This document shows positions 12,960 through 22,717 of a stretch of DNA of 64,000 nt, piece by piece. Position 1 is the first letter of the stretch. Each line of letters opens with the position of its first letter. This DNA is from Rhodothermales bacterium (GTDB lineage: Bacteria; Bacteroidota; Rhodothermia; Rhodothermales; VXPQ01): the NCBI GenBank assembly GCA_040904565.1, contig JBBDTI010000083.1:1-64000 (forward strand), given 5' to 3'. The position numbers were made by a program, and so were the translations under genes. The notes beneath the pieces were generated by a model. The model was not told where the DNA came from and ran no database searches. It saw nothing but the letters and a program-made list of their open reading frames with translations.

Positions 12960-13928
12960 ATGTCACCACAAAGATTGCTTCAGAACGAACGATTTCAGCA
13001 GTTTCTTTCGGAGGGTCCGGGGACGGCATTACTCGTCTCCGCTCTGATCGTCCTGGGGGCCTTCGTGCTGTCACGTATGCTGAAGCGAATCATCCCCCGG
13101 TACATCGACGATCCCGACCGTCGCTACCGCGCCTCGAAACTAACGGCCCGCCTGGTCGGCTTCGCTGCCGTCGTGGCCATCGTCTTTGTCTGGTCGTCCG
13201 GGGACGGACCCGGTTTGGCCACCATCCTCACGCTGATCGGTGCGGGTCTGGCCATCGCGCTACGCGAGGTCGTGCTCTCCTTCGTGGCGTGGATAAATAT
13301 TGTCATCCACTCCCCCTTCGAACAGGGCGACCGCATCGAGATCAACGGCATTCAGGGCGACGTTATCGATATTCGGCTGCTGCACAGCACGCTGATGGAG
13401 ACGGGAGGGTGGGTAAACGCCGATCAGAGTACAGGCCGCATCGTACACTTCCCCAACGGCTGGCTGTACCAGTACGGGATCTACAACTACACGCATGGAT
13501 TCAGATTCTTGTGGAACGAGATCCCGTTTACCATCACGTTTCGATCTGACTGGAATGCGGCGCGCGAGATCATGCTCGACCTCGCCTCCGAAACGGCCGA
13601 AATCGTCGAGCAACAGGTGAAGCGAGAGATTCAGCAGATGTCTCGAGAGTATCTCGTTCACTACAGCATCCTGACTCCGTTCGTGTATGTGCGGGTTACG
13701 TCGAACGGCGTGCAGCTGACCCTGCGCTATCTGGCCGAAGCGCGCAAGCGGCGCGGAACCGAGCATGCGCTGACCATGAGCATTCTGAACGCGTTTCGCG
13801 ATCACGGTCAGATCGAGCTGGCCTACGGCATGGTCGGTGTGGCACAGATGGACTCGCCGCAGTTCGGACCGATGCCGGGGCCGGGCGGCCGGACGGGCGG
13901 ATCGGCCGGCGGCGAAACGCGCCGGTAG
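12960..13928 (+). CDS. mscS: Small-conductance mechanosensitive channel (MscS family)
   Basis: Three TM helices, PFEQGDRIEI, GDVIDI, FPNG motifs; TTGGCG-17-TATTCT candidate promoter at 12914-12942. Confidence 0.9.
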   Translation: MSPQRLLQNERFQQFLSEGPGTALLVSALIVLGAFVLSRMLKRIIPRYIDDPDRRYRASKLTARLVGFAAVVAIVFVWSSGDGPGLATILTLIGAGLAIALREVVLSFVAWINIVIHSPFEQGDRIEINGIQGDVIDIRLLHSTLMETGGWVNADQSTGRIVHFPNGWLYQYGIYNYTHGFRFLWNEIPFTITFRSDWNAAREIMLDLASETAEIVEQQVKREIQQMSREYLVHYSILTPFVYVRVTSNGVQLTLRYLAEARKRRGTEHALTMSILNAFRDHGQIELAYGMVGVAQMDSPQFGPMPGPGGRTGGSAGGETRR

Positions 13929-14040
13929 TCGGGTTTGTAACCCGGTCTTCCCGTCACGTCCGTTGTGATGAACGTTCTGAGAATCCGCCGCCGGGGCAGG
14001 AGAGACGAGGCCTGATGCGGCCACCCACGCAGCGTACCTG

Positions 14041-14069
14041 TTGCAATTCGCGCTCCCCACGCGTACCTT
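14041..14069 (+). promoter_or_regulatory. Putative sigma70 promoter of trp operon
   Basis: TTGCAA-17 nt-TACCTT, ending 7 nt before the leader-peptide ATG. Confidence 0.65.
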
Positions 14070-14076
14070 CTCGTCG

Positions 14077-14172
14077 ATGATCGTCAACGACCTGCATAGC
14101 GCCCGTTCCAACCGGTGGTGGTGGCATCCTACCGGACAGTCTACCGGACAGTGGGGCAATACGTGCACGTAA
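14077..14172 (+). CDS. trpL: trp operon leader peptide, 31 aa (MIVNDLHSARSNRWWWHPTGQSTGQWGNTCT)
   Basis: Three tandem TGG codons at 14116-14124 plus a fourth Trp; directly upstream of terminator and trpE; too short for the ORF track. Confidence 0.9.
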   Translation: MIVNDLHSARSNRWWWHPTGQSTGQWGNTCT

Positions 14173-14215
14173 GTTGTCGATGATCGTACCGAATTGACGG
14201 CGACAGCCGCGGCCC

Positions 14216-14250
14216 CCCACTGTTCAAGCGAGCAGTGGGTTTTTTTATTT
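14216..14250 (+). terminator. trp attenuator terminator
   Basis: CCCACTGTTC-AAGC-GAGCAGTGGG followed by TTTTTTTATTT; left arm can alternatively pair with GGACAGTGGGG at 14146-14156. Confidence 0.9.
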
Positions 14251-14311
14251 CATCCCGGTGTGTTTTGTGGGACGACCGCGAAGCGCGCAGAATCTCATAC
14301 GACGCATACAG

Positions 14312-15802
14312 ATGCATCTTGATGAATTCGAACAGCTGGTAGAAGCGCACCGCAAGCGCGGTGCCGGGAACGTCGTCGTGCCGGTGTTTCGGCGTCTCAG
14401 CGCGGATCTTCTTACGCCCGTTTCGGCCTTCCTAACGCTGCGCCGGAGGAGCCGGTACAGTTTCCTCCTCGAAAGCGTCGAAGGAGGCGAGAAGCTGGCC
14501 CGCTATTCGTTCCTCGGAAAGAACCCGTTCCGCATTTTGCGGGCATACGGCGGACACGTCACGGCGGAGGACGCAGGCGGCTCGGAGGAAGCGGTGGATG
14601 GGGACATTTTCGAAGCCGTGCAGCGGGAGCTCGACCGGTATACGGAGATTAAAGTCAGCGGGGTGCCGCGATTCACGAGCGGTGCCGTCGGGTACCTCGG
14701 CTACGACGCCGTTCGCCTTATCGAACATCTGCCCGACGTACCGGAGGACGACCTGAAGTTACCGGATGCCACGTGGTGCTTTTACGACACCTTCGCGGCC
14801 TTCGACCACGTTAAACATCAGCTCGTGCTGATGTCGGGCGCTTTCGTCGACACGGATGCGGATCCGGCTGACGCGTATCACCGAGCCTCCGAGCGTATCG
14901 ACGCGCTCGAAGGCGAACTTTCCGACACTACGATCCAGAGCCCGGATCCCGTTCGTATCCTGGACGAGGAAATGGATTCTAACTTCAAACGTGACGACTT
15001 CGAAGCAGCCGTCGAGCGCATCAAACGATATATCTACGAGGGCGATATCTTTCAAGCCGTGCTCTCGCAGCGTTTTTCAATGCCTTTCCGCGGCGATCGA
15101 ATCAATCTCTATCGAGCTCTCAGGCAGGTCAATCCGTCCCCCTATCTCTTTTACCTCGACTTCGACGGCTTCGCGCTGATCGGCTCCTCACCGGAAGTCC
15201 TGGTTCGCGTCGAAGAAGGGACGGCGGAAGTGCTCCCCATCGCCGGCACGCGTGCTCGTGGATCGACGGAGGATGAGGATGCTCGTCTCGAGGCTGAGCT
15301 TCTTGCCGATCCCAAGGAACGTGCGGAGCACCTGATGCTTGTCGACCTCGGTCGCAATGACCTCGGTCGCGTGTGTCGATACGGATCCGTCCACGTCGAT
15401 CGGTATGCCTACGTGGAGCGTTATTCCCACGTCATGCACATCGTATCCTCCGTCTCGGGACGCCTGGAGCGCGATGAAGGCGTCATGAAGGTTCTGGGCG
15501 CCTGTTTCCCTGCGGGAACGGTCAGCGGTGCACCGAAGGTACGAGCGATGGAAATCATAGACGAACTGGAGCCGACGAAACGCGGCGCGTATGCCGGCGC
15601 GGTGGGTCACGTCGACTATTCGGGCAACATGGATACGTGCATCGCCATTCGAACGATGGTCGTTCACGACCACCGCATCTACGTCCAGGCCGGCGCCGGC
15701 ATCGTGGCCGACAGCGACCCGGAGCGTGAATACGAGGAAACGGTTAACAAGGCTCGCGCTTTGAAGGAAGCGATCTTGATGGCCGCCGAGGGCCTGCTTT
15801 AA
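14312..15802 (+). CDS. trpE: Anthranilate synthase component I
   Basis: [50 protein letters not shown]. Confidence 0.97.
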
Positions 15803-15873: not shown

Positions 15874-16338
15874 ATGGGACTCAAGGAACTCTTTCTCAAC
15901 AAGGGCTGGGCCGGCAAGACACTCTCCCGGCAGGAAACGGTTGAGCGCATCAATCCGCTGCTCCGAACGCACTACGAGCTCAATCGGGCCTATGAATATG
16001 CCATCCGGAATCTGTCGGACGCCGAGACGGCCGACCGGCTCGAGGTCTTACAAAAGACGGCAAGGGGCGACGTCGGCAAATTAAGTGAGACGGTGCTGAG
16101 CGCCGGCGGCGTAGCCTACAACGGCACGGATCTCGAGCCGGGTGACGTCGACCTCGGCTCGAACGATGCGTCCATCTTAGGCGAGCTGGAGCGCCTCGAG
16201 TCCGCCCTCGCGGCAGCACTCGATGAGGAGCTGGAAGAGGAGCACCAGATTCGCACGCGTGCCATTCTGGGCGTCGTACGTAATAACAGCCGCGAACGAC
16301 TCGACTACGTCCGTCGCGCCGCGAGAAATGCCCAGTAG
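15874..16338 (+). CDS. Hypothetical helical protein, possibly ferritin-like fold
   Basis: 154 aa with AAGG upstream; helix-helix-GG-linker-helix-helix pattern (VLSAGG); lies inside the trp operon. Confidence 0.7.
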   Translation: MGLKELFLNKGWAGKTLSRQETVERINPLLRTHYELNRAYEYAIRNLSDAETADRLEVLQKTARGDVGKLSETVLSAGGVAYNGTDLEPGDVDLGSNDASILGELERLESALAAALDEELEEEHQIRTRAILGVVRNNSRERLDYVRRAARNAQ

Positions 16339-16406
16339 CCGCTACCTACCCTGCCTGTTCGTCCGCTTGCGCCGCCCCCTTCCAACCACCACGACATCCC
16401 CAACCC

Positions 16407-17462
16407 ATGAATGACGTACGGACCCGACCCGGGCGCACACAACCGAGCGACGAGGTGGCCCGTTCACCCGTCGTCGTTTCTGGAATCCAGCCGTCGGGCA
16501 CCCTCCACCTGGGGAACTATTTTGGCGCTCTCCGACAGCATATTCAGCTGCACAGGCAGCACGAGGCCTTCTACTTCATCGTTAACTATCATGCATTGAC
16601 GACGATGCAGGACGCGGACGAGCTCAGGCGCTACACGTTGGACGTCGCGCTCGACTACCTCGCACTGGGATTCGATCCGAACCAGGCCCATTTGTTCGTT
16701 CAGAGCGACGTGCCGGAAGTTACGGAGCTCGCCTGGATATTCTACAACCTCACGACGGTCTCTCAGCTCGAGAAGGGGGTGGCGTATAAGGACAAGGTCG
16801 CTCAGGGACTCGTGCCCAATGCCGGACTCTTTAATTACCCGGTCCTTCAGGCGGCGGACATTCTCATTTATGGGGGGTCTCTCGTTCCCGTGGGCGCGGA
16901 TCAGAAGCAGCATATCGAGATGACGCGCGATATCGCCGAGCGCTTCAATCGAATATATTGTGACGATGACGAACCCCTGTTTCCCGTGCCGGAACCGCAT
17001 ATTCTGGACGACGTCGCCGTCGTTCCCGGTATCGACGGGCGTAAGATGTCCAAGAGCTACGGCAACACGATCGCTATTTTCGACGAAGGTAAGACGTTGA
17101 AAAAGAAGGTCATGAGCATCGTGACCGATTCCACGCCGCTGGACGAACCGAAGGACCCTGACCGGGACAACGTGTTCGCACTCATCAAGCTGTTTGCCGA
17201 CGACGAGACGCGGGACCGCATCGAAGCGTCATATCTCCAGGGCGGATACGGTTACGGCCACGCCAAGAAGGAGCTGATCGGGTTGATCGACGACTATTTC
17301 GGCGAGGCGCGCGAGCGTAGAAAGGAACTGGCCGGCCGTCCCGATTTCGTGCGGGACGTGCTCCGCGACGGTGCGCGATCGGCCAGACGGCGAGCGGCCG
17401 GATGTATGGCGAAGGTGCGCGACCACGTCGGGCTTATAACGACATACGGTGAGGCGCCATGA
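16407..17462 (+). CDS. trpS: Tryptophan--tRNA ligase
   Basis: SGIQPSGTLHLGNY, YPVLQAADIL, VPVGADQKQH, KMSKS. Confidence 0.97.
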   Translation: MNDVRTRPGRTQPSDEVARSPVVVSGIQPSGTLHLGNYFGALRQHIQLHRQHEAFYFIVNYHALTTMQDADELRRYTLDVALDYLALGFDPNQAHLFVQSDVPEVTELAWIFYNLTTVSQLEKGVAYKDKVAQGLVPNAGLFNYPVLQAADILIYGGSLVPVGADQKQHIEMTRDIAERFNRIYCDDDEPLFPVPEPHILDDVAVVPGIDGRKMSKSYGNTIAIFDEGKTLKKKVMSIVTDSTPLDEPKDPDRDNVFALIKLFADDETRDRIEASYLQGGYGYGHAKKELIGLIDDYFGEARERRKELAGRPDFVRDVLRDGARSARRRAAGCMAKVRDHVGLITTYGEAP

Positions 17463-18049
17463 TTCTCATCATCGATAATTACGACTCGTTCACGTACAAC
17501 CTCGTTCACCTGGTGGGAACGCACACGGACGATTTAAGGGTCGTTCGAAACGACGCCATGACCACGGAAGACGTGATGGACCTCGCTCCCGAGGGACTCC
17601 TGATTTCTCCGGGGCCGGGCCGTCCAGTCGATGCCGGGATCTCGGAATCTCTGATCCGGCATCTCGGAGCTACGACGCCCATTCTCGGCGTGTGCCTCGG
17701 ACATCAGGCCATCGGAGAGGTATACGGCGGGCGGGTTACGTATGCCCCCACGCTCATGCACGGTAAGACCAGCCGAATCAAGCACGACGGCCGAACCGTC
17801 TTCAGCGGCATCAAAAGTCCGTTCACGGCGACCCGGTATCATTCCCTGGTCGTAGACCCTAGCGGTCTGCCCGACGAGCTGGAGATTTCCGCGCACACCG
17901 AGGACGGCGTCATCATGGGCCTACGCCACCGGAAGCATCCCGTTGAAGGCATACAATTTCATCCGGAGAGCGTCCTGACCAGTGTCGGGCCGCGCATCAT
18001 CGACAACTGGTTGGAGCGTGTTCTGGCACCGTCCGCGCATACGCATTGA
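17459..18049 (+). CDS. trpG: Anthranilate synthase component II (glutamine amidotransferase)
   Basis: IDNYDSFTYNL, SPGPG, GVCLGHQ, RYHSL, QFHPES. Confidence 0.97.
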   Translation: MILIIDNYDSFTYNLVHLVGTHTDDLRVVRNDAMTTEDVMDLAPEGLLISPGPGRPVDAGISESLIRHLGATTPILGVCLGHQAIGEVYGGRVTYAPTLMHGKTSRIKHDGRTVFSGIKSPFTATRYHSLVVDPSGLPDELEISAHTEDGVIMGLRHRKHPVEGIQFHPESVLTSVGPRIIDNWLERVLAPSAHTH

Positions 18050-18097
18050 TCCTCCGCACAGGCACAACGTGAATTACTACGACCACGCGACCTGACT

Positions 18098-19177
18098 ATG
18101 AACGAATTTCTTTCGACGATAGCGGACGGCGGCACTCTCGGCGTCGAAGAGGCCGAGTCTGCCATGCACGTGCTGATGAAGGGGGTATCCGATCCTGCCC
18201 TCGTCGCGGCATTTCTGGTCGGACTCCGAGCGCGGGGCGAGACCGTCGACGAACTGGTCGGATTTACGCGCGTCATGCGAGACTATGCTGTTTCCGTCGA
18301 CGCAGGCGACCCGGACGCGGTCGACCTCTGCGGCACTGGCGGTGACGCGAGTGGGACGTTCAACATCTCGACGGCCGCCTCGCTCGTCTGCGCGGGGACG
18401 GGGATTACCGTCGCCAAGCATGGAAATCGATCGGTTTCCTCGAACTGCGGATCCGCCGACGTACTGGAGGCCCTCGGCGTGCAGGTAGAATTGAAAAAGC
18501 CCGGCGTGGAATACTGCTTCGAGAAAGCGGGCATCGCCTTCATGTACGCCCCCTTCTTTCATCCGGCCATGCGGCACGTCATGCCCGTCCGCAGGAAACT
18601 GGGCATCCGCACCTTCTTCAACATTCTAGGCCCCCTCTGCAATCCAGCCGGCGTCCGCCGGCAGCTCGTCGGGGCCTTCGACGCGCAAACGGCGCAGACG
18701 ATCACGTCCATCCTCGAACAGCTCGACGCGCGGCACGTAATGGCCGTACACTCCGCCGACGGGATGGACGAGGTGTCCCTGTCGGACGAAACGATCGTCT
18801 TCGAGTTTGCCTCGGGCGACAATGGTGAAACGTGGCTAACCTTCTCGGGTGAGGACGACGATGTCGCCGATCGCGACGTGACCAAGAAACGCCGTATCAG
18901 TCCGGAAGACTTCGGATTCGGCCGTTTCCCGCGGAAGGCACTTCGCGGCGGCAACGCCACGGAGAATGCACAGATTCTGACGTCTATTCTCGTGGGAGAG
19001 CCCGGCCCGGCCCGGGACGTCACGGTCATGAACGCGGCCTGTGCCATTCACACGAGCGGCCGTTATTCAGGCATGGAAGCGTGCCGGGCCGCCGCCGAGG
19101 AAAGCATCGACTCCGGTCGTGCCCGCGATGTCTTGAAGAAGCTGGTCGAGGCATCCAATAACGCGCCCGCGTCATGA
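18098..19177 (+). CDS. trpD: Anthranilate phosphoribosyltransferase
   Basis: DLCGTGGD, TFNIST, KHGNRSVSS, GSAD, HPAM, DGMDE. Confidence 0.97.
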   Translation: MNEFLSTIADGGTLGVEEAESAMHVLMKGVSDPALVAAFLVGLRARGETVDELVGFTRVMRDYAVSVDAGDPDAVDLCGTGGDASGTFNISTAASLVCAGTGITVAKHGNRSVSSNCGSADVLEALGVQVELKKPGVEYCFEKAGIAFMYAPFFHPAMRHVMPVRRKLGIRTFFNILGPLCNPAGVRRQLVGAFDAQTAQTITSILEQLDARHVMAVHSADGMDEVSLSDETIVFEFASGDNGETWLTFSGEDDDVADRDVTKKRRISPEDFGFGRFPRKALRGGNATENAQILTSILVGEPGPARDVTVMNAACAIHTSGRYSGMEACRAAAEESIDSGRARDVLKKLVEASNNAPAS

Positions 19178-19971
19178 CGATTCTCGATCGCATCGTTCAG
19201 GACACGAAGGAGCTGGTCGCCGAGCGTAAGAACGTTCGATCCATCTCGCACCTGGAGACCCTCCCGCTTTTCGATCGCGTTCCGCTGCCGCTCGAGGCGG
19301 TGCTTCGCGGCGAGCAGCTCGCCGTGATCAGTGAAATCAAGAAGGCATCGCCGTCGAAGGGCGTCATTCGGCATGAGTTTCACCCTGTTGAGATTGCACG
19401 ACAGTACGTCCGGGGGGGGGCGGCCGCTATATCGGTTCTTACGGAGCCCGATTATTTTCAGGGGTCCATCGAAACGCTCGCCGCCGTGCGCGAGCAGGTG
19501 TCGATCCCTCTTCTCCGAAAGGATTTCATCGTCGACCCGTATCAACTTGTGGAGGCCAGGGCGTACGGCGCCGACGCCGTACTCTTGATTGCCGCCGTAC
19601 TCGACCGCGGCAGGCTGGCGGATCTGCTTCAAGCGGCCGGATCGCTCGGGCTCTCCGCCCTCGTCGAGGTGTACGACCTCCAGGAGCTCGACCGGATCGA
19701 TTTCGACGACGTTTCGATTCTCGGCGTTAACAACCGCGACCTGCGCACGTTCGAGGTAGACATCAATCATTCCCTGACTGTCTTCGCTCACGTTCCGGAA
19801 TCGATACTGCGCGTTTCAGAAAGCGGCCTCCGATCGGCCCGGCAGCTGAGGCACCTCCACGATCATGGCGTCGACGCCGTACTGATCGGCGAGACCTTCA
19901 TGCGGGAAGACGATCCCGGCCAAGCGCTTGCATCTTTGCGACGAGACGTCGAACGGACACCTGAAGTATGA
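19174..19971 (+). CDS. trpC: Indole-3-glycerol phosphate synthase
   Basis: EIKKASPSKG, LRKDFI, GVNNRDL, SESG. Confidence 0.97.
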   Translation: MTILDRIVQDTKELVAERKNVRSISHLETLPLFDRVPLPLEAVLRGEQLAVISEIKKASPSKGVIRHEFHPVEIARQYVRGGAAAISVLTEPDYFQGSIETLAAVREQVSIPLLRKDFIVDPYQLVEARAYGADAVLLIAAVLDRGRLADLLQAAGSLGLSALVEVYDLQELDRIDFDDVSILGVNNRDLRTFEVDINHSLTVFAHVPESILRVSESGLRSARQLRHLHDHGVDAVLIGETFMREDDPGQALASLRRDVERTPEV

Positions 19972-20621
19972 CGATACGGCTTAAGATATGCGGCATCACG
20001 CGACTTGAAGACGCCCGGTATGCCGCCGCGGCCGGGGCCGATTATCTTGGATTCATACAGTACCGGGAAAGCCCGCGGTACATCGAACCGGCCCGCGTAC
20101 GTGAGATCGTCGACTGGATCTACGGACCGGATCCGGTGGGCGTCTTCGTCGACGAAACGGCAGCGGACGTCAATCGCATCGCCGACGAAGCGGGCTTCAC
20201 GCTGGTTCAGCTGCACGGAGACGAGCCCGTGTTCGAGGTGGCCCGGATCGACCGTCCCGTCATCAAGGCGATCCGCGTCGCTCCCGACACGACGACGGAC
20301 GCGTTGCGGAGACAGCTCCGCGCGTATGAGAACGTCGTAGATCACTTTTTGCTGGATACCCACTCGGCGGCGCTCCGCGGCGGTACGGGCGAGGCATTCG
20401 ACTGGGAGGTCGCCCGGGGGCTGTCGGCGGACTATGACCTGTTTCTGGCGGGGGGCGTTGGTGCCGACAACGTGCAGCAGGGCGTCCGTCTGCTGGATCC
20501 CTTCGGCGTGGACGTATCGAGTTCGCTCGAGGTCGAACCCGGGATCAAGGACTTTACGAAGATAGACACCTTCATGCGTGCATTCGACACCCTTTCCTCC
20601 ACGTCTCGAACCAACAGCTGA
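19968..20621 (+). CDS. trpF: Phosphoribosylanthranilate isomerase
   Basis: KICGIT, QLHGDE, GGTG, LAGG, GVDVSS. Confidence 0.97.
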   Translation: MTIRLKICGITRLEDARYAAAAGADYLGFIQYRESPRYIEPARVREIVDWIYGPDPVGVFVDETAADVNRIADEAGFTLVQLHGDEPVFEVARIDRPVIKAIRVAPDTTTDALRRQLRAYENVVDHFLLDTHSAALRGGTGEAFDWEVARGLSADYDLFLAGGVGADNVQQGVRLLDPFGVDVSSSLEVEPGIKDFTKIDTFMRAFDTLSSTSRTNS

Positions 20622-20624
20622 TCC

Positions 20625-21815
20625 ATGCCGCAAGCCCACCCCATCCCCGACGAGCGAGGCCACTTCGGCGTGTACGGAGGCGTGTTCGTCCCCGAGATAC
20701 TCATTCCGGCGGTTACGCGCCTCCGTGAAGCCTATGAAGAGGCGCGTGACGACGAGTCCTTCCAGGAAACCTATCACGAACTCCTGGAAACGTACGTAGG
20801 TCGACCGACCGCCCTTACGTATTGCAATCGACTGACCGACGAGCTCGGGGGACCGAAAATCTACCTGAAGCGCGAGGACCTGTGTCACACGGGGGCGCAC
20901 AAGATCAACAATACGATCGGACAGATTCTTCTTGCTCGCCGGATGGGCAAGACACGCATCATCGCGGAGACGGGCGCGGGCCAACACGGCGTCGCCACCG
21001 CCACCGTATGTGCGAAGTTCGGTATGCAGTGCATCGTATATATGGGGGACGAAGATGTAGAGCGTCAGCACCTGAATGTATTGAGGATGAAACTCCTCGG
21101 CGCTGAGGTCCGAGCGGTTTCCAGCGGAAGCAAGACGCTGAAGGACGCAACGAACGAGGCCATTCGCGACTGGGTTACGAACGTCTCCGACACGTTCTAC
21201 ATTATCGGTTCAGTCGTCGGCCCGCACCCGTATCCCATGATGGTGCGCGACTTCCAACGTGTCATAGGAGACGAGACACGGCGCCAGCTTCTGGAGGCGG
21301 AAGGTCGCGAAACCCCGGACGCCGCACTGGCGTGCGTGGGCGGCGGGTCGAACGCCATGGGGCTCTTCTATCCCTTCCTGCGCGACGCCGGCGTTCGCCT
21401 GCAGGGCGTTGAAGCGGCCGGTGAAGGACTCGACAAACGCCATGCGGCAACGCTCACCAAGGGTACGCGCGGTATCCTCCACGGTACGATGAGTTATCTG
21501 CTCCAGAATGACGAGGGGCAGATCGAGCTGGCCCACTCGATTTCGGCCGGACTCGACTATCCGGGGGTGGGTCCCGAGCATGCCTTCCTGCGTGACGCCG
21601 GCCGCGTCAATTATGCGTCGGTAACGGACGAGGAGGCCATGGAGGGCGTTAAGCTGCTCTCGCGTACGGAGGGCATCATCCCGGCACTCGAAACCGCCCA
21701 TGCCATCGCCTACCTCCCACAGCTCGCATCCGAGATGCGGCCCGACGAGATTATTGTCGTCAATTGTTCCGGTCGCGGCGATAAGGACATGGGTACGATC
21801 TCCGGGTATCTATAG
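20625..21815 (+). CDS. trpB: Tryptophan synthase beta chain
   Basis: [44 protein letters not shown]. Confidence 0.98.
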
Positions 21816-21877
21816 GAATATACCGAAAACGCCCGATCTCACACAGGTACTACCAACAGGAGCGCCCCGCGGAATAC

Positions 21878-22717
21878 ATGTCACGAATTCGAGAAACGCT
21901 AGAGACTTGCCGGCAGCGTGGTGAGAAGGCGATGGGCCTGTTCCTTACGAGCGGATTCCCGGACGCCGAGAGCACGCTTCCGATTCTCAGGGAAATGGAC
22001 CGGGGCGGCGCAGATTTCGTCGAGCTGGGCATGCCCTTCAGCGATCCGCTTGCCGAAGGATTGCCCATTCAGCGCTCCAGCGAACGTGCCCTCCGTGGGG
22101 GCGCGCGCATGAAAGATGCGCTGGAAACCGCACGCTCCTTTCGAGCCGAAAGCGATACGCCGCTCCTCCTGATGGGCTACGTCAATCCAATCCACCGATA
22201 CGGCATCGCCTCGTTCTGCCGGGATGCCCGAGATGCGGGCGTTGACGGTCTCATCCTCGCCGACCTGCCGCTCGAAGAGTCGTCCGTCATCGCGGAGGCC
22301 GCGGCCTCCGCCGGGCTCGGACTCGTCAACCTGATCGCCCCAAACAGCGGCGAGGAACGGATCCAGCGTATCGACGACGTCACGACGGCATTCGTGTATG
22401 CGGTATCGGTCACCGGACTGACGGGATCCGGATTCGGATCGGTTGAGAACGTCGAAGCCTATCTGCGGCGAGCGCGGCAGCTCGTTACAGCCAATCCACT
22501 CCTCGTAGGATTCGGCATCAAAACCCACGAAGACGCGGAGCGATTGAGTCAAAACACGGACGGTTTCATCGTCGGATCGGCGCTCATCGAGCACGTGGAA
22601 AAACTCTGGGCCGACCGTTCTCTGTCCACGAAAGCGCGCCTCAGTGAGGTTCGCCGCTTTGTCGCCGCACTCAAACATGGGAACGAGGTGTCGGCCGCCG
22701 GGACGCCCGGCGCATAA
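21878..22717 (+). CDS. trpA: Tryptophan synthase alpha chain
   Basis: [34 protein letters not shown]. Confidence 0.96.

Follow-up and report, generated by a model that had tools for sequence, protein, structure and literature searches.

The trp genes in the window (the whole stretch of DNA that was analysed, 64,000 nucleotides) are preceded by a short open reading frame (ORF) with three tandem Trp codons and by a hairpin followed by a T tract, an arrangement that raises two questions: whether translation of the short ORF decides if RNA polymerase enters trpE, and on what kind of transcript such translation would begin. As far as this can be read from sequence, our results strongly support a genuine ribosome-mediated Trp attenuator upstream of trpE-orf154-trpS-trpGDCFBA, and expression of the operon in vivo would accordingly be expected to depend on Trp. 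The genome concerned was assembled from a sediment metagenome (4.0 Mb, 95 contigs) and encodes 25 T9SS C-terminal sorting domains; a search of sequencing runs for its DNA returned four DNA runs, all from one sediment-metagenome study, and no RNA run. The best named relatives of its TrpE come from Rhodohalobacter and Balneolaceae (57 to 58% identity), in which the same leader element is present.

The trp operon and its leader ORF

The genes behind the leader are as follows.

14312 to 15802, plus strand: trpE, anthranilate synthase component I, the first gene predicted to be regulated (TIGR00564, 576.9 bits, above the cut-off)
15874 to 22717, plus strand: orf154, trpS, trpG, trpD, trpC, trpF, trpB and trpA (profile matches)
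15874 to 16338, plus strand: orf154, 154 amino acids, with a weak, sub-threshold match to DUF2383 only
16407 to 17462, plus strand: trpS, tryptophanyl-tRNA synthetase (TrpRS), inside the putatively attenuated operon

The order-level loci keep these genes as trpE-orf154-trpS; at the Balneolaceae loci the retained order is trpE-trpS-trpG. The trpS gene is the only TrpRS match in this 95%-complete genome, and its position behind an attenuator poses the question of how basal trpS expression would be secured. Upstream of the leader lies an MscS-like gene that ends at 13928. Between this gene and trpE, the coding part of the leader contains the following features.

14077 to 14172, plus strand: leader peptide ORF of 31 codons and a stop codon, with homologous ORFs in relatives
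14095 to 14098, plus strand: CATA (His codon 7 plus A), near-invariant columns of alignment A1
14129 to 14152, plus strand: tandem duplication of 12 nt, two copies of CTACCGGACAGT, visible as an alignment gap in relatives

The leader ORF, whose translation is MIVNDLHSARSNRWWWHPTGQSTGQWGNTCT, lies directly upstream from trpE, 140 nt ahead of the gene, and its codons 14 to 16, at 14116-14124, are the three Trp codons; the ORF and Trp codons described in an earlier, sequence-only reading of this region are present base for base. Searches of the leader peptide against Pfam and NCBIfam gave no matches. The Trp codons are equalled in conservation by CATA, in which AT never varies among the 22 order-level leaders of A1 and the C and A on either side reach at least 90% conservation. 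We found neither a pairing partner nor a function for CATA at 14095-14098; its retention in DNA of about 60% G+C suggests a constraint at the nucleotide level.

Two repeats were also observed in the leader. The CTACCGGACAGT duplication, present in this genome but not in its relatives, lengthens the ORF by four codons (TGQS/TGQW) and creates a second, partial copy of the segment designated region 2 below. An exact 12-nt direct repeat of the nearly palindromic GTCGATGATCGT occurs at 14073-14084, spanning the leader ATG, and at 14176-14187, just past the leader stop codon; one copy is paired with the other in the full-length minimum free energy (MFE) fold, and the repeat is not evident in the leader of the closest relative.

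Conservation of the element across the class

From the T9SS sorting domains and from the named Balneolaceae and Rhodohalobacter loci that share the element, we read the class as Rhodothermia-like, comprising Rhodothermales and Balneolales. Of 30 TrpE loci compared at the family and order levels, our own genome included, 22 have a short WW or WWW ORF with a CCCACTG...CAGTGGG hairpin and T tract behind it, and a locus with a WGW leader (L105) brings the number with the element to 23 of 30; the remainder are L090-L094, which are without the leader, and two truncated loci. A homologous element is present at four named Balneolaceae loci. A covariance model, R1, built from 26 of these sequences (alignment A2), matched 103 of 151 genomes of the class, a count in which the 26 training sequences match by construction; matches were nearly always one copy per genome, and in family f29 they extended to 65 of the 66 genomes. 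In a sample of the phylum, R1 matched 31 of the 37 genomes that belong to the class but only 1 of the other 114, a partial match with an E value of 1.2e-4. Across the class, the element is a single-copy feature upstream from trpE. Aligning the relatives' trpE upstream regions, a check proposed along with the sequence-only reading, showed that the Trp codons are conserved and that the terminator and antiterminator covary; the attenuator suggested there was borne out class-wide in its leader ORF, Trp codons, terminator and antiterminator.

The loci without a leader belong to genus g8. In these loci (L090-L094), the MscS-like gene and trpE are still neighbours, the leader ORF and the CCCACTG terminator are missing, and the site of the leader is occupied by another short hairpin that has its own T run; the attenuator was apparently lost within this genus. 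Searches of four relatives (L090, L092, L093 and L105) against Rfam gave no matches, T-box included.

Short WWW or WWWW ORFs were also seen upstream from trpE at four named loci in other phyla (L011, L033, L042 and L062, with titles reading Gemmatimonadaceae, Syntrophales or Syntrophaceae, and delta proteobacterium). The terminators at these loci show no relation to the one described here, so these are probably independent trp attenuators. A scan for short ORFs with amino acid runs before terminators covered 331 terminator-like sites and yielded 18 candidates, among them the trp leader and two polycysteine ORFs; the others look like chance. The polycysteine ORFs, at G000:C83:73088 (plus strand, outside the window) and G000:C84:44405 (minus strand), each contain five Cys codons in a row ahead of a strong terminator; the ORF downstream from one of them resembles uroporphyrinogen methyltransferase and that downstream from the other sulfite/nitrite reductase, names that were read from the translations. 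We regard the two as candidate cysteine attenuators; their promoter-to-ATG geometry is not clearly leaderless.

Promoter and predicted transcription start

Upstream from the leader ATG, three features bear on where the transcript would begin.

14041 to 14046, plus strand: -35/-33-like element TTGCAA, its TTG invariant in A1
14064 to 14071, plus strand: -10/-7-like element TACCTT(CT), a TAnnTT(TG)-type box whose geometry was set against that of the Bacteroidetes -7 box
14075 to 14077, plus strand: predicted transcription start, from the geometry of the -7 box

The promoter from which a leaderless start had been argued is there in the sequence as described, with TTGCAA (14041-14046) separated by 17 nt from TACCTT (14064-14069), which ends 7 nt before the ATG. 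The same type of motif, TTG-N19-21-TAnn[T/C]T, lies upstream from the Trp codons at 40 of 50 distinct loci. Measured from the box to the first ATG that follows it by 5 nt or more, the distance is 6 nt at 5 loci, 7 nt at 11, 8 nt at 10, 9 nt at 7, and 10 nt at 7. At all 40 loci this ATG shares its frame with the Trp codons, where one in three would be expected if the two were unrelated, and all 40 motif-bearing loci keep the tandem Trp codons, the in-frame ATG and the open frame. Ten loci did not pass the automatic rule, namely L090-L094 (without the leader), L097 and L106 (truncated), L105, L109 and L127; of these, L105 and L109 show the same promoter-ATG arrangement by eye. In A1, the motif is the sole conserved sequence upstream from the ATG, and its spacing to the ATG has held across two orders while the flanks diverged.

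Excerpts of two studies (PMC6847099 and PMC9723704) give the Bacteroidetes -7 box as T-12 A-11 .. T-8 T-7 T-6 G-5, with 4 to 5 nt from the box to the transcription start site (TSS). If T14064 is taken as -12, +1 falls at 14076 and the 5' untranslated region (UTR) is 1 nt long. Applied to the 40 loci, this published geometry predicts UTRs of 0 to 4 nt; at the 14 loci with a box-to-ATG distance of 9 to 10 nt, the predicted UTR is 3 to 4 nt and thus not zero. Within the genome, TTG-N19-21-TAnnTT occurs within 120 nt upstream from 5 of 34 tRNA genes versus 0.4% of random 120-nt windows, and by this measure the motif behaves as a real promoter type.

The best-surviving alternative, which we consider unlikely, retains the Trp attenuator and gives it a conventional leadered transcript: transcription would come from a promoter farther upstream or by read-through from the MscS-like gene, the leader ORF would be initiated internally and independently of a Shine-Dalgarno sequence, and TTG...TAnnTT would be a weak or secondary promoter. 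Several observations favour this version. Initiation without Shine-Dalgarno sequences is normal in the group: Bacteroidetes are described as lacking them in part of PMC6847099, Rhodothermus marinus and Salinibacter ruber show no Shine-Dalgarno logo in a portion of PMC3155529, and trpE, orf154 and trpS in the window also start without one. The sequence-only reading had counted the missing Shine-Dalgarno sequence as a sign of leaderless translation; it is indeed absent at the leader, but the argument is weak, because such sequences are usually missing in this lineage and in Bacteroidetes generally, and their absence is uninformative about a leaderless start. Short-UTR or leaderless mRNAs are moreover rare in Bacteroidetes, making up about 3.7% and 5.5% in TSS maps as excerpted (one map is that of PMC9723704), and genome-wide we found no leaderless peak behind the promoter motif, with 6 of 277 motif sites lying 6 to 9 nt before long ORFs. 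Taken together, the rarity of such mRNAs and the lack of a genome-wide peak indicate that leaderless starts are not a habit of the lineage. The strict motif plus ATG occurs at 33 sites in the genome, and these include no further amino acid leaders. A generic sigma-70 scan of 13500-14800 also detected no promoters, since TACCTT fits TATAAT at only 3 of 6 positions.

Against a leadered transcript stand the promoter-like motif as the one conserved feature before the ATG in A1, the 6- to 10-nt spacing to an in-frame ATG that all 40 loci of the two orders maintain between diverged flanks, and the enrichment of the motif type before tRNA genes. On balance, the leader ORF is very probably leaderless or nearly so, and there is a good likelihood, slightly above that of the complete reading, that the transcript starts at or 1 nt before the leader AUG. 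We accordingly favour, as the likely complete reading, a classical ribosome-mediated attenuator with a leaderless or nearly leaderless leader RNA. Of the earlier leaderless claim, the promoter geometry has stood, at 40 of 40 loci; the TSS itself is predicted from that geometry.

Terminator, antiterminator and a possible 1:2 stem

The downstream part of the leader contains four segments with the potential to form alternative structures.

14101 to 14124, plus strand: candidate region 1, GCCC at 14101-14104 and CCGGTGGTGGTGG at 14112-14124 (MFE fold of 14100-14160)
14146 to 14156, plus strand: region 2, antiterminator 5' arm, GGACAGTGGGG (complementarity and fold)
14215 to 14225, plus strand: region 3, antiterminator 3' arm and terminator left arm, CCCCACTGTTC (pairing and covariation)
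14230 to 14246, plus strand: region 4, GAGCAGTGGG, with a T7 tract, terminator right arm and U tract (fold and covariation)

The terminator hairpin and U tract were found where they had been placed: a 10-bp stem (14216-14225 with 14230-14239) is followed by T7 at 14240-14246, the fold has an energy of -17.5 kcal/mol (z = -4.68, with none of 200 shuffles as good), and RNAalifold recovered nine consensus pairs, three of them with compensatory changes. The proposed antiterminator, in which 14146-14156 pairs with the left arm of the terminator, also withstood examination. ACAGTGGGG (14148-14156) is 100% complementary to CCCCACTGT (14215-14223), and the full 11-bp pairing of 14146-14156 with 14215-14225 forms when 14140-14226 is folded. 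Across the relatives in A1, 88.4% of 241 cells were paired at the antiterminator, compared with just 38 to 55% when the partner was slid by 1 to 3 columns, and there were 15 double-change cells, with compensatory changes at three pairs (for example, AU 12 and GC 7 at columns 131:226). None of 500 shuffles reached the observed value, a control that overstates the case because the sequences are related; the slid-partner control is the safer one.

The position of the antiterminator relative to the Trp codons is also consistent with attenuation. A ribosome covers about 12 nt downstream from its A site, and in all 26 sequences region 2 starts 12 to 24 nt after the last Trp codon's first base; its start would thus lie level with, or past, the front of a ribosome stalled on that codon. 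Masking a ribosome there left the left arm of the terminator paired upstream by at least 6 bp in all 26 sequences, and with the mask on the stop codon this was still so in 23 of 26. In full-length MFE folds, the terminator is present in every state, and masking a ribosome at the stop codon failed to yield the terminated state at equilibrium. As equilibrium folds do not reproduce the switch, it would have to be kinetic, as in the classical model.

The third structure of the earlier reading, a 1:2 stem, is one of its weaker arguments. CCGGTGG over the Trp codons does pair with CTACCGG in the MFE fold of 14100-14160, but this fold is no better than those of shuffled sequences (z = -0.78, with 42 of 200 as good), and RNAalifold gave no consensus 1:2 stem on sub-alignments upstream from region 3. 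In 21 of 26 single-sequence MFE folds, region 2 has at least 5 nt paired upstream. A 1:2 anti-antiterminator at this position is therefore putative.

Two further explanations deny the leader ORF its role, and we regard both as highly improbable. In the first, which has no specific observation in its favour, the terminator would be controlled by some other factor, protein or RNA (TRAP-like, T-box-like, or a riboswitch), and the WWW ORF would be incidental. TRAP sites have about 11 (G/U)AG repeats. Between 14077 and 14215 we found a single such triplet, with one TAG and no GAG (TRAP sites are named in the available part of PMC4027176), and a cmscan search of 13500-14800 against Rfam, up to an E value of 10, returned no meaningful match and no T-box in this region of the window, the matches to TCV_H4 and mir-2110 being due to chance; the tandem Trp codons, in-frame ATG and open frame at 40 of 40 loci likewise argue against an incidental ORF. 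In the second, the hairpin and U tract would be a constitutive terminator or insulator of the upstream gene with no regulation, which agrees with its constant formation in full-length equilibrium folds but not with its location about 290 nt past the upstream stop codon and behind a conserved promoter, with the covariation of its left arm with a segment inside the leader ORF, or with the single-copy occurrence of the element upstream from trpE throughout the class.

A model for the switch

The preferred reading, an attenuator governed by the ribosome on the leader ORF, can be put together as follows. The TTG-N20-TAnnTT promoter would start transcription at or 1 nt before the leader AUG, so that the RNA on which the 31-codon leader is translated would be leaderless or nearly so. 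A shortage of charged tRNA-Trp would stall the ribosome on the three Trp codons (14116-14124) and leave region 2 (14146-14156) free to pair with region 3 (14215-14225); with regions 2 and 3 paired, the terminator could not form, and RNA polymerase would enter trpE. When tRNA-Trp is plentiful, the ribosome would advance, and region 2 would be covered or re-paired with upstream sequence; regions 3 and 4 would then form the terminator before the U tract, and transcription would stop. On an RNA without a ribosome, candidate region 1 would pair with region 2 and its flank.

A bolder version of this model, which we regard as a rather improbable speculation, would hold that, across a whole class of the Bacteroidota-like FCB lineage, in which Shine-Dalgarno sequences are not used and leaderless mRNAs are rare, Trp is sensed by the loading of ribosomes directly onto a 5'-terminal AUG, that CAUA at +19 to +22 (14095-14098) is a new signal, for example for pausing or coupling, that takes over from the 1:2 pause hairpin in synchronising the ribosome with RNA polymerase, and that the same switch sets the level of the sole TrpRS.

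Comparison with known systems

Attenuation by this mechanism is familiar from other bacteria, and the novelty lies in the family and in the lineage that carries it. The element adds a class-wide trp leader RNA and peptide family that is uncurated and absent from Rfam, Pfam and NCBIfam, and it offers a clean comparative case in which the leader start codon stands at the predicted transcript start in a lineage with atypical translation initiation. The sequence-only reading had professed no knowledge of a description in this lineage. Our literature search found no report of such an element in Rhodothermus, Salinibacter or Balneolaceae and nothing useful on Bacteroidetes, trpE and leader peptides in combination, but the concept itself is published for Deinococcus and Actinobacteria. 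Earlier attenuator predictions by Vitreschak et al. in 2004 and by Merino, Jensen and Yanofsky in 2008 are said to touch on Bacteroidetes/Chlorobi.

The closest classical parallel is trpL of Escherichia coli, with which the element shares a short ORF just before trpE that contains tandem Trp codons, together with a mutually exclusive antiterminator and intrinsic terminator. The two differ in that the element has no Rfam match (the family of the E. coli leader is Trp_leader, RF00513) and no Shine-Dalgarno sequence, its ATG lies 7 nt past a -10-like box, and the operon also contains trpS. The leader stop codon, moreover, lies at least 13 nt past region 2, so that a terminating ribosome would cover region 2 only marginally, again unlike in E. 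coli. In Sinorhizobium meliloti, a ribosome-dependent Trp attenuator (trpL/rnTrpL) likewise precedes trpE(G), and the excerpted account (PMC6614838) describes the attenuator RNA and the peptide as acting additionally in trans. A passage of PMC9723704 mentions leader-peptide attenuation before amino acid operons in Flavobacterium psychrophilum.

Leaderless leader ORFs have been described in Actinobacteria. The ilvB leader of Corynebacterium diphtheriae is given as leaderless in part of PMC5784534, where no TSS is recorded for the trp leader MTNMNAHNWWWRA, and mycobacterial polycysteine leaderless upstream ORFs act as attenuators according to a portion of 10.1101/834739. These are likewise short cis attenuators rich in the sensed amino acid, whereas they come from a different phylum and sense amino acids other than the one considered here.

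The geometry that we predict has a counterpart in Deinococcus deserti. The sections of PMC4007540 available for this comparison report that 60% of its mRNAs are leaderless, that 14 putative attenuation leader peptides begin at the 5' end of the transcript, and that the trpEGD leader has a TSS, measured by dRNA-seq, 1 nt upstream from the start codon. This is the arrangement predicted here, with the differences that our TSS is derived from promoter geometry and that our lineage has no general leaderless signal. Confirmation of the TSS would extend the range of leaderless leader peptides from Deinococcus and Actinobacteria to a lineage related to Bacteroidota, and cultured relatives would then provide a simple system for leaderless initiation coupled to transcription.
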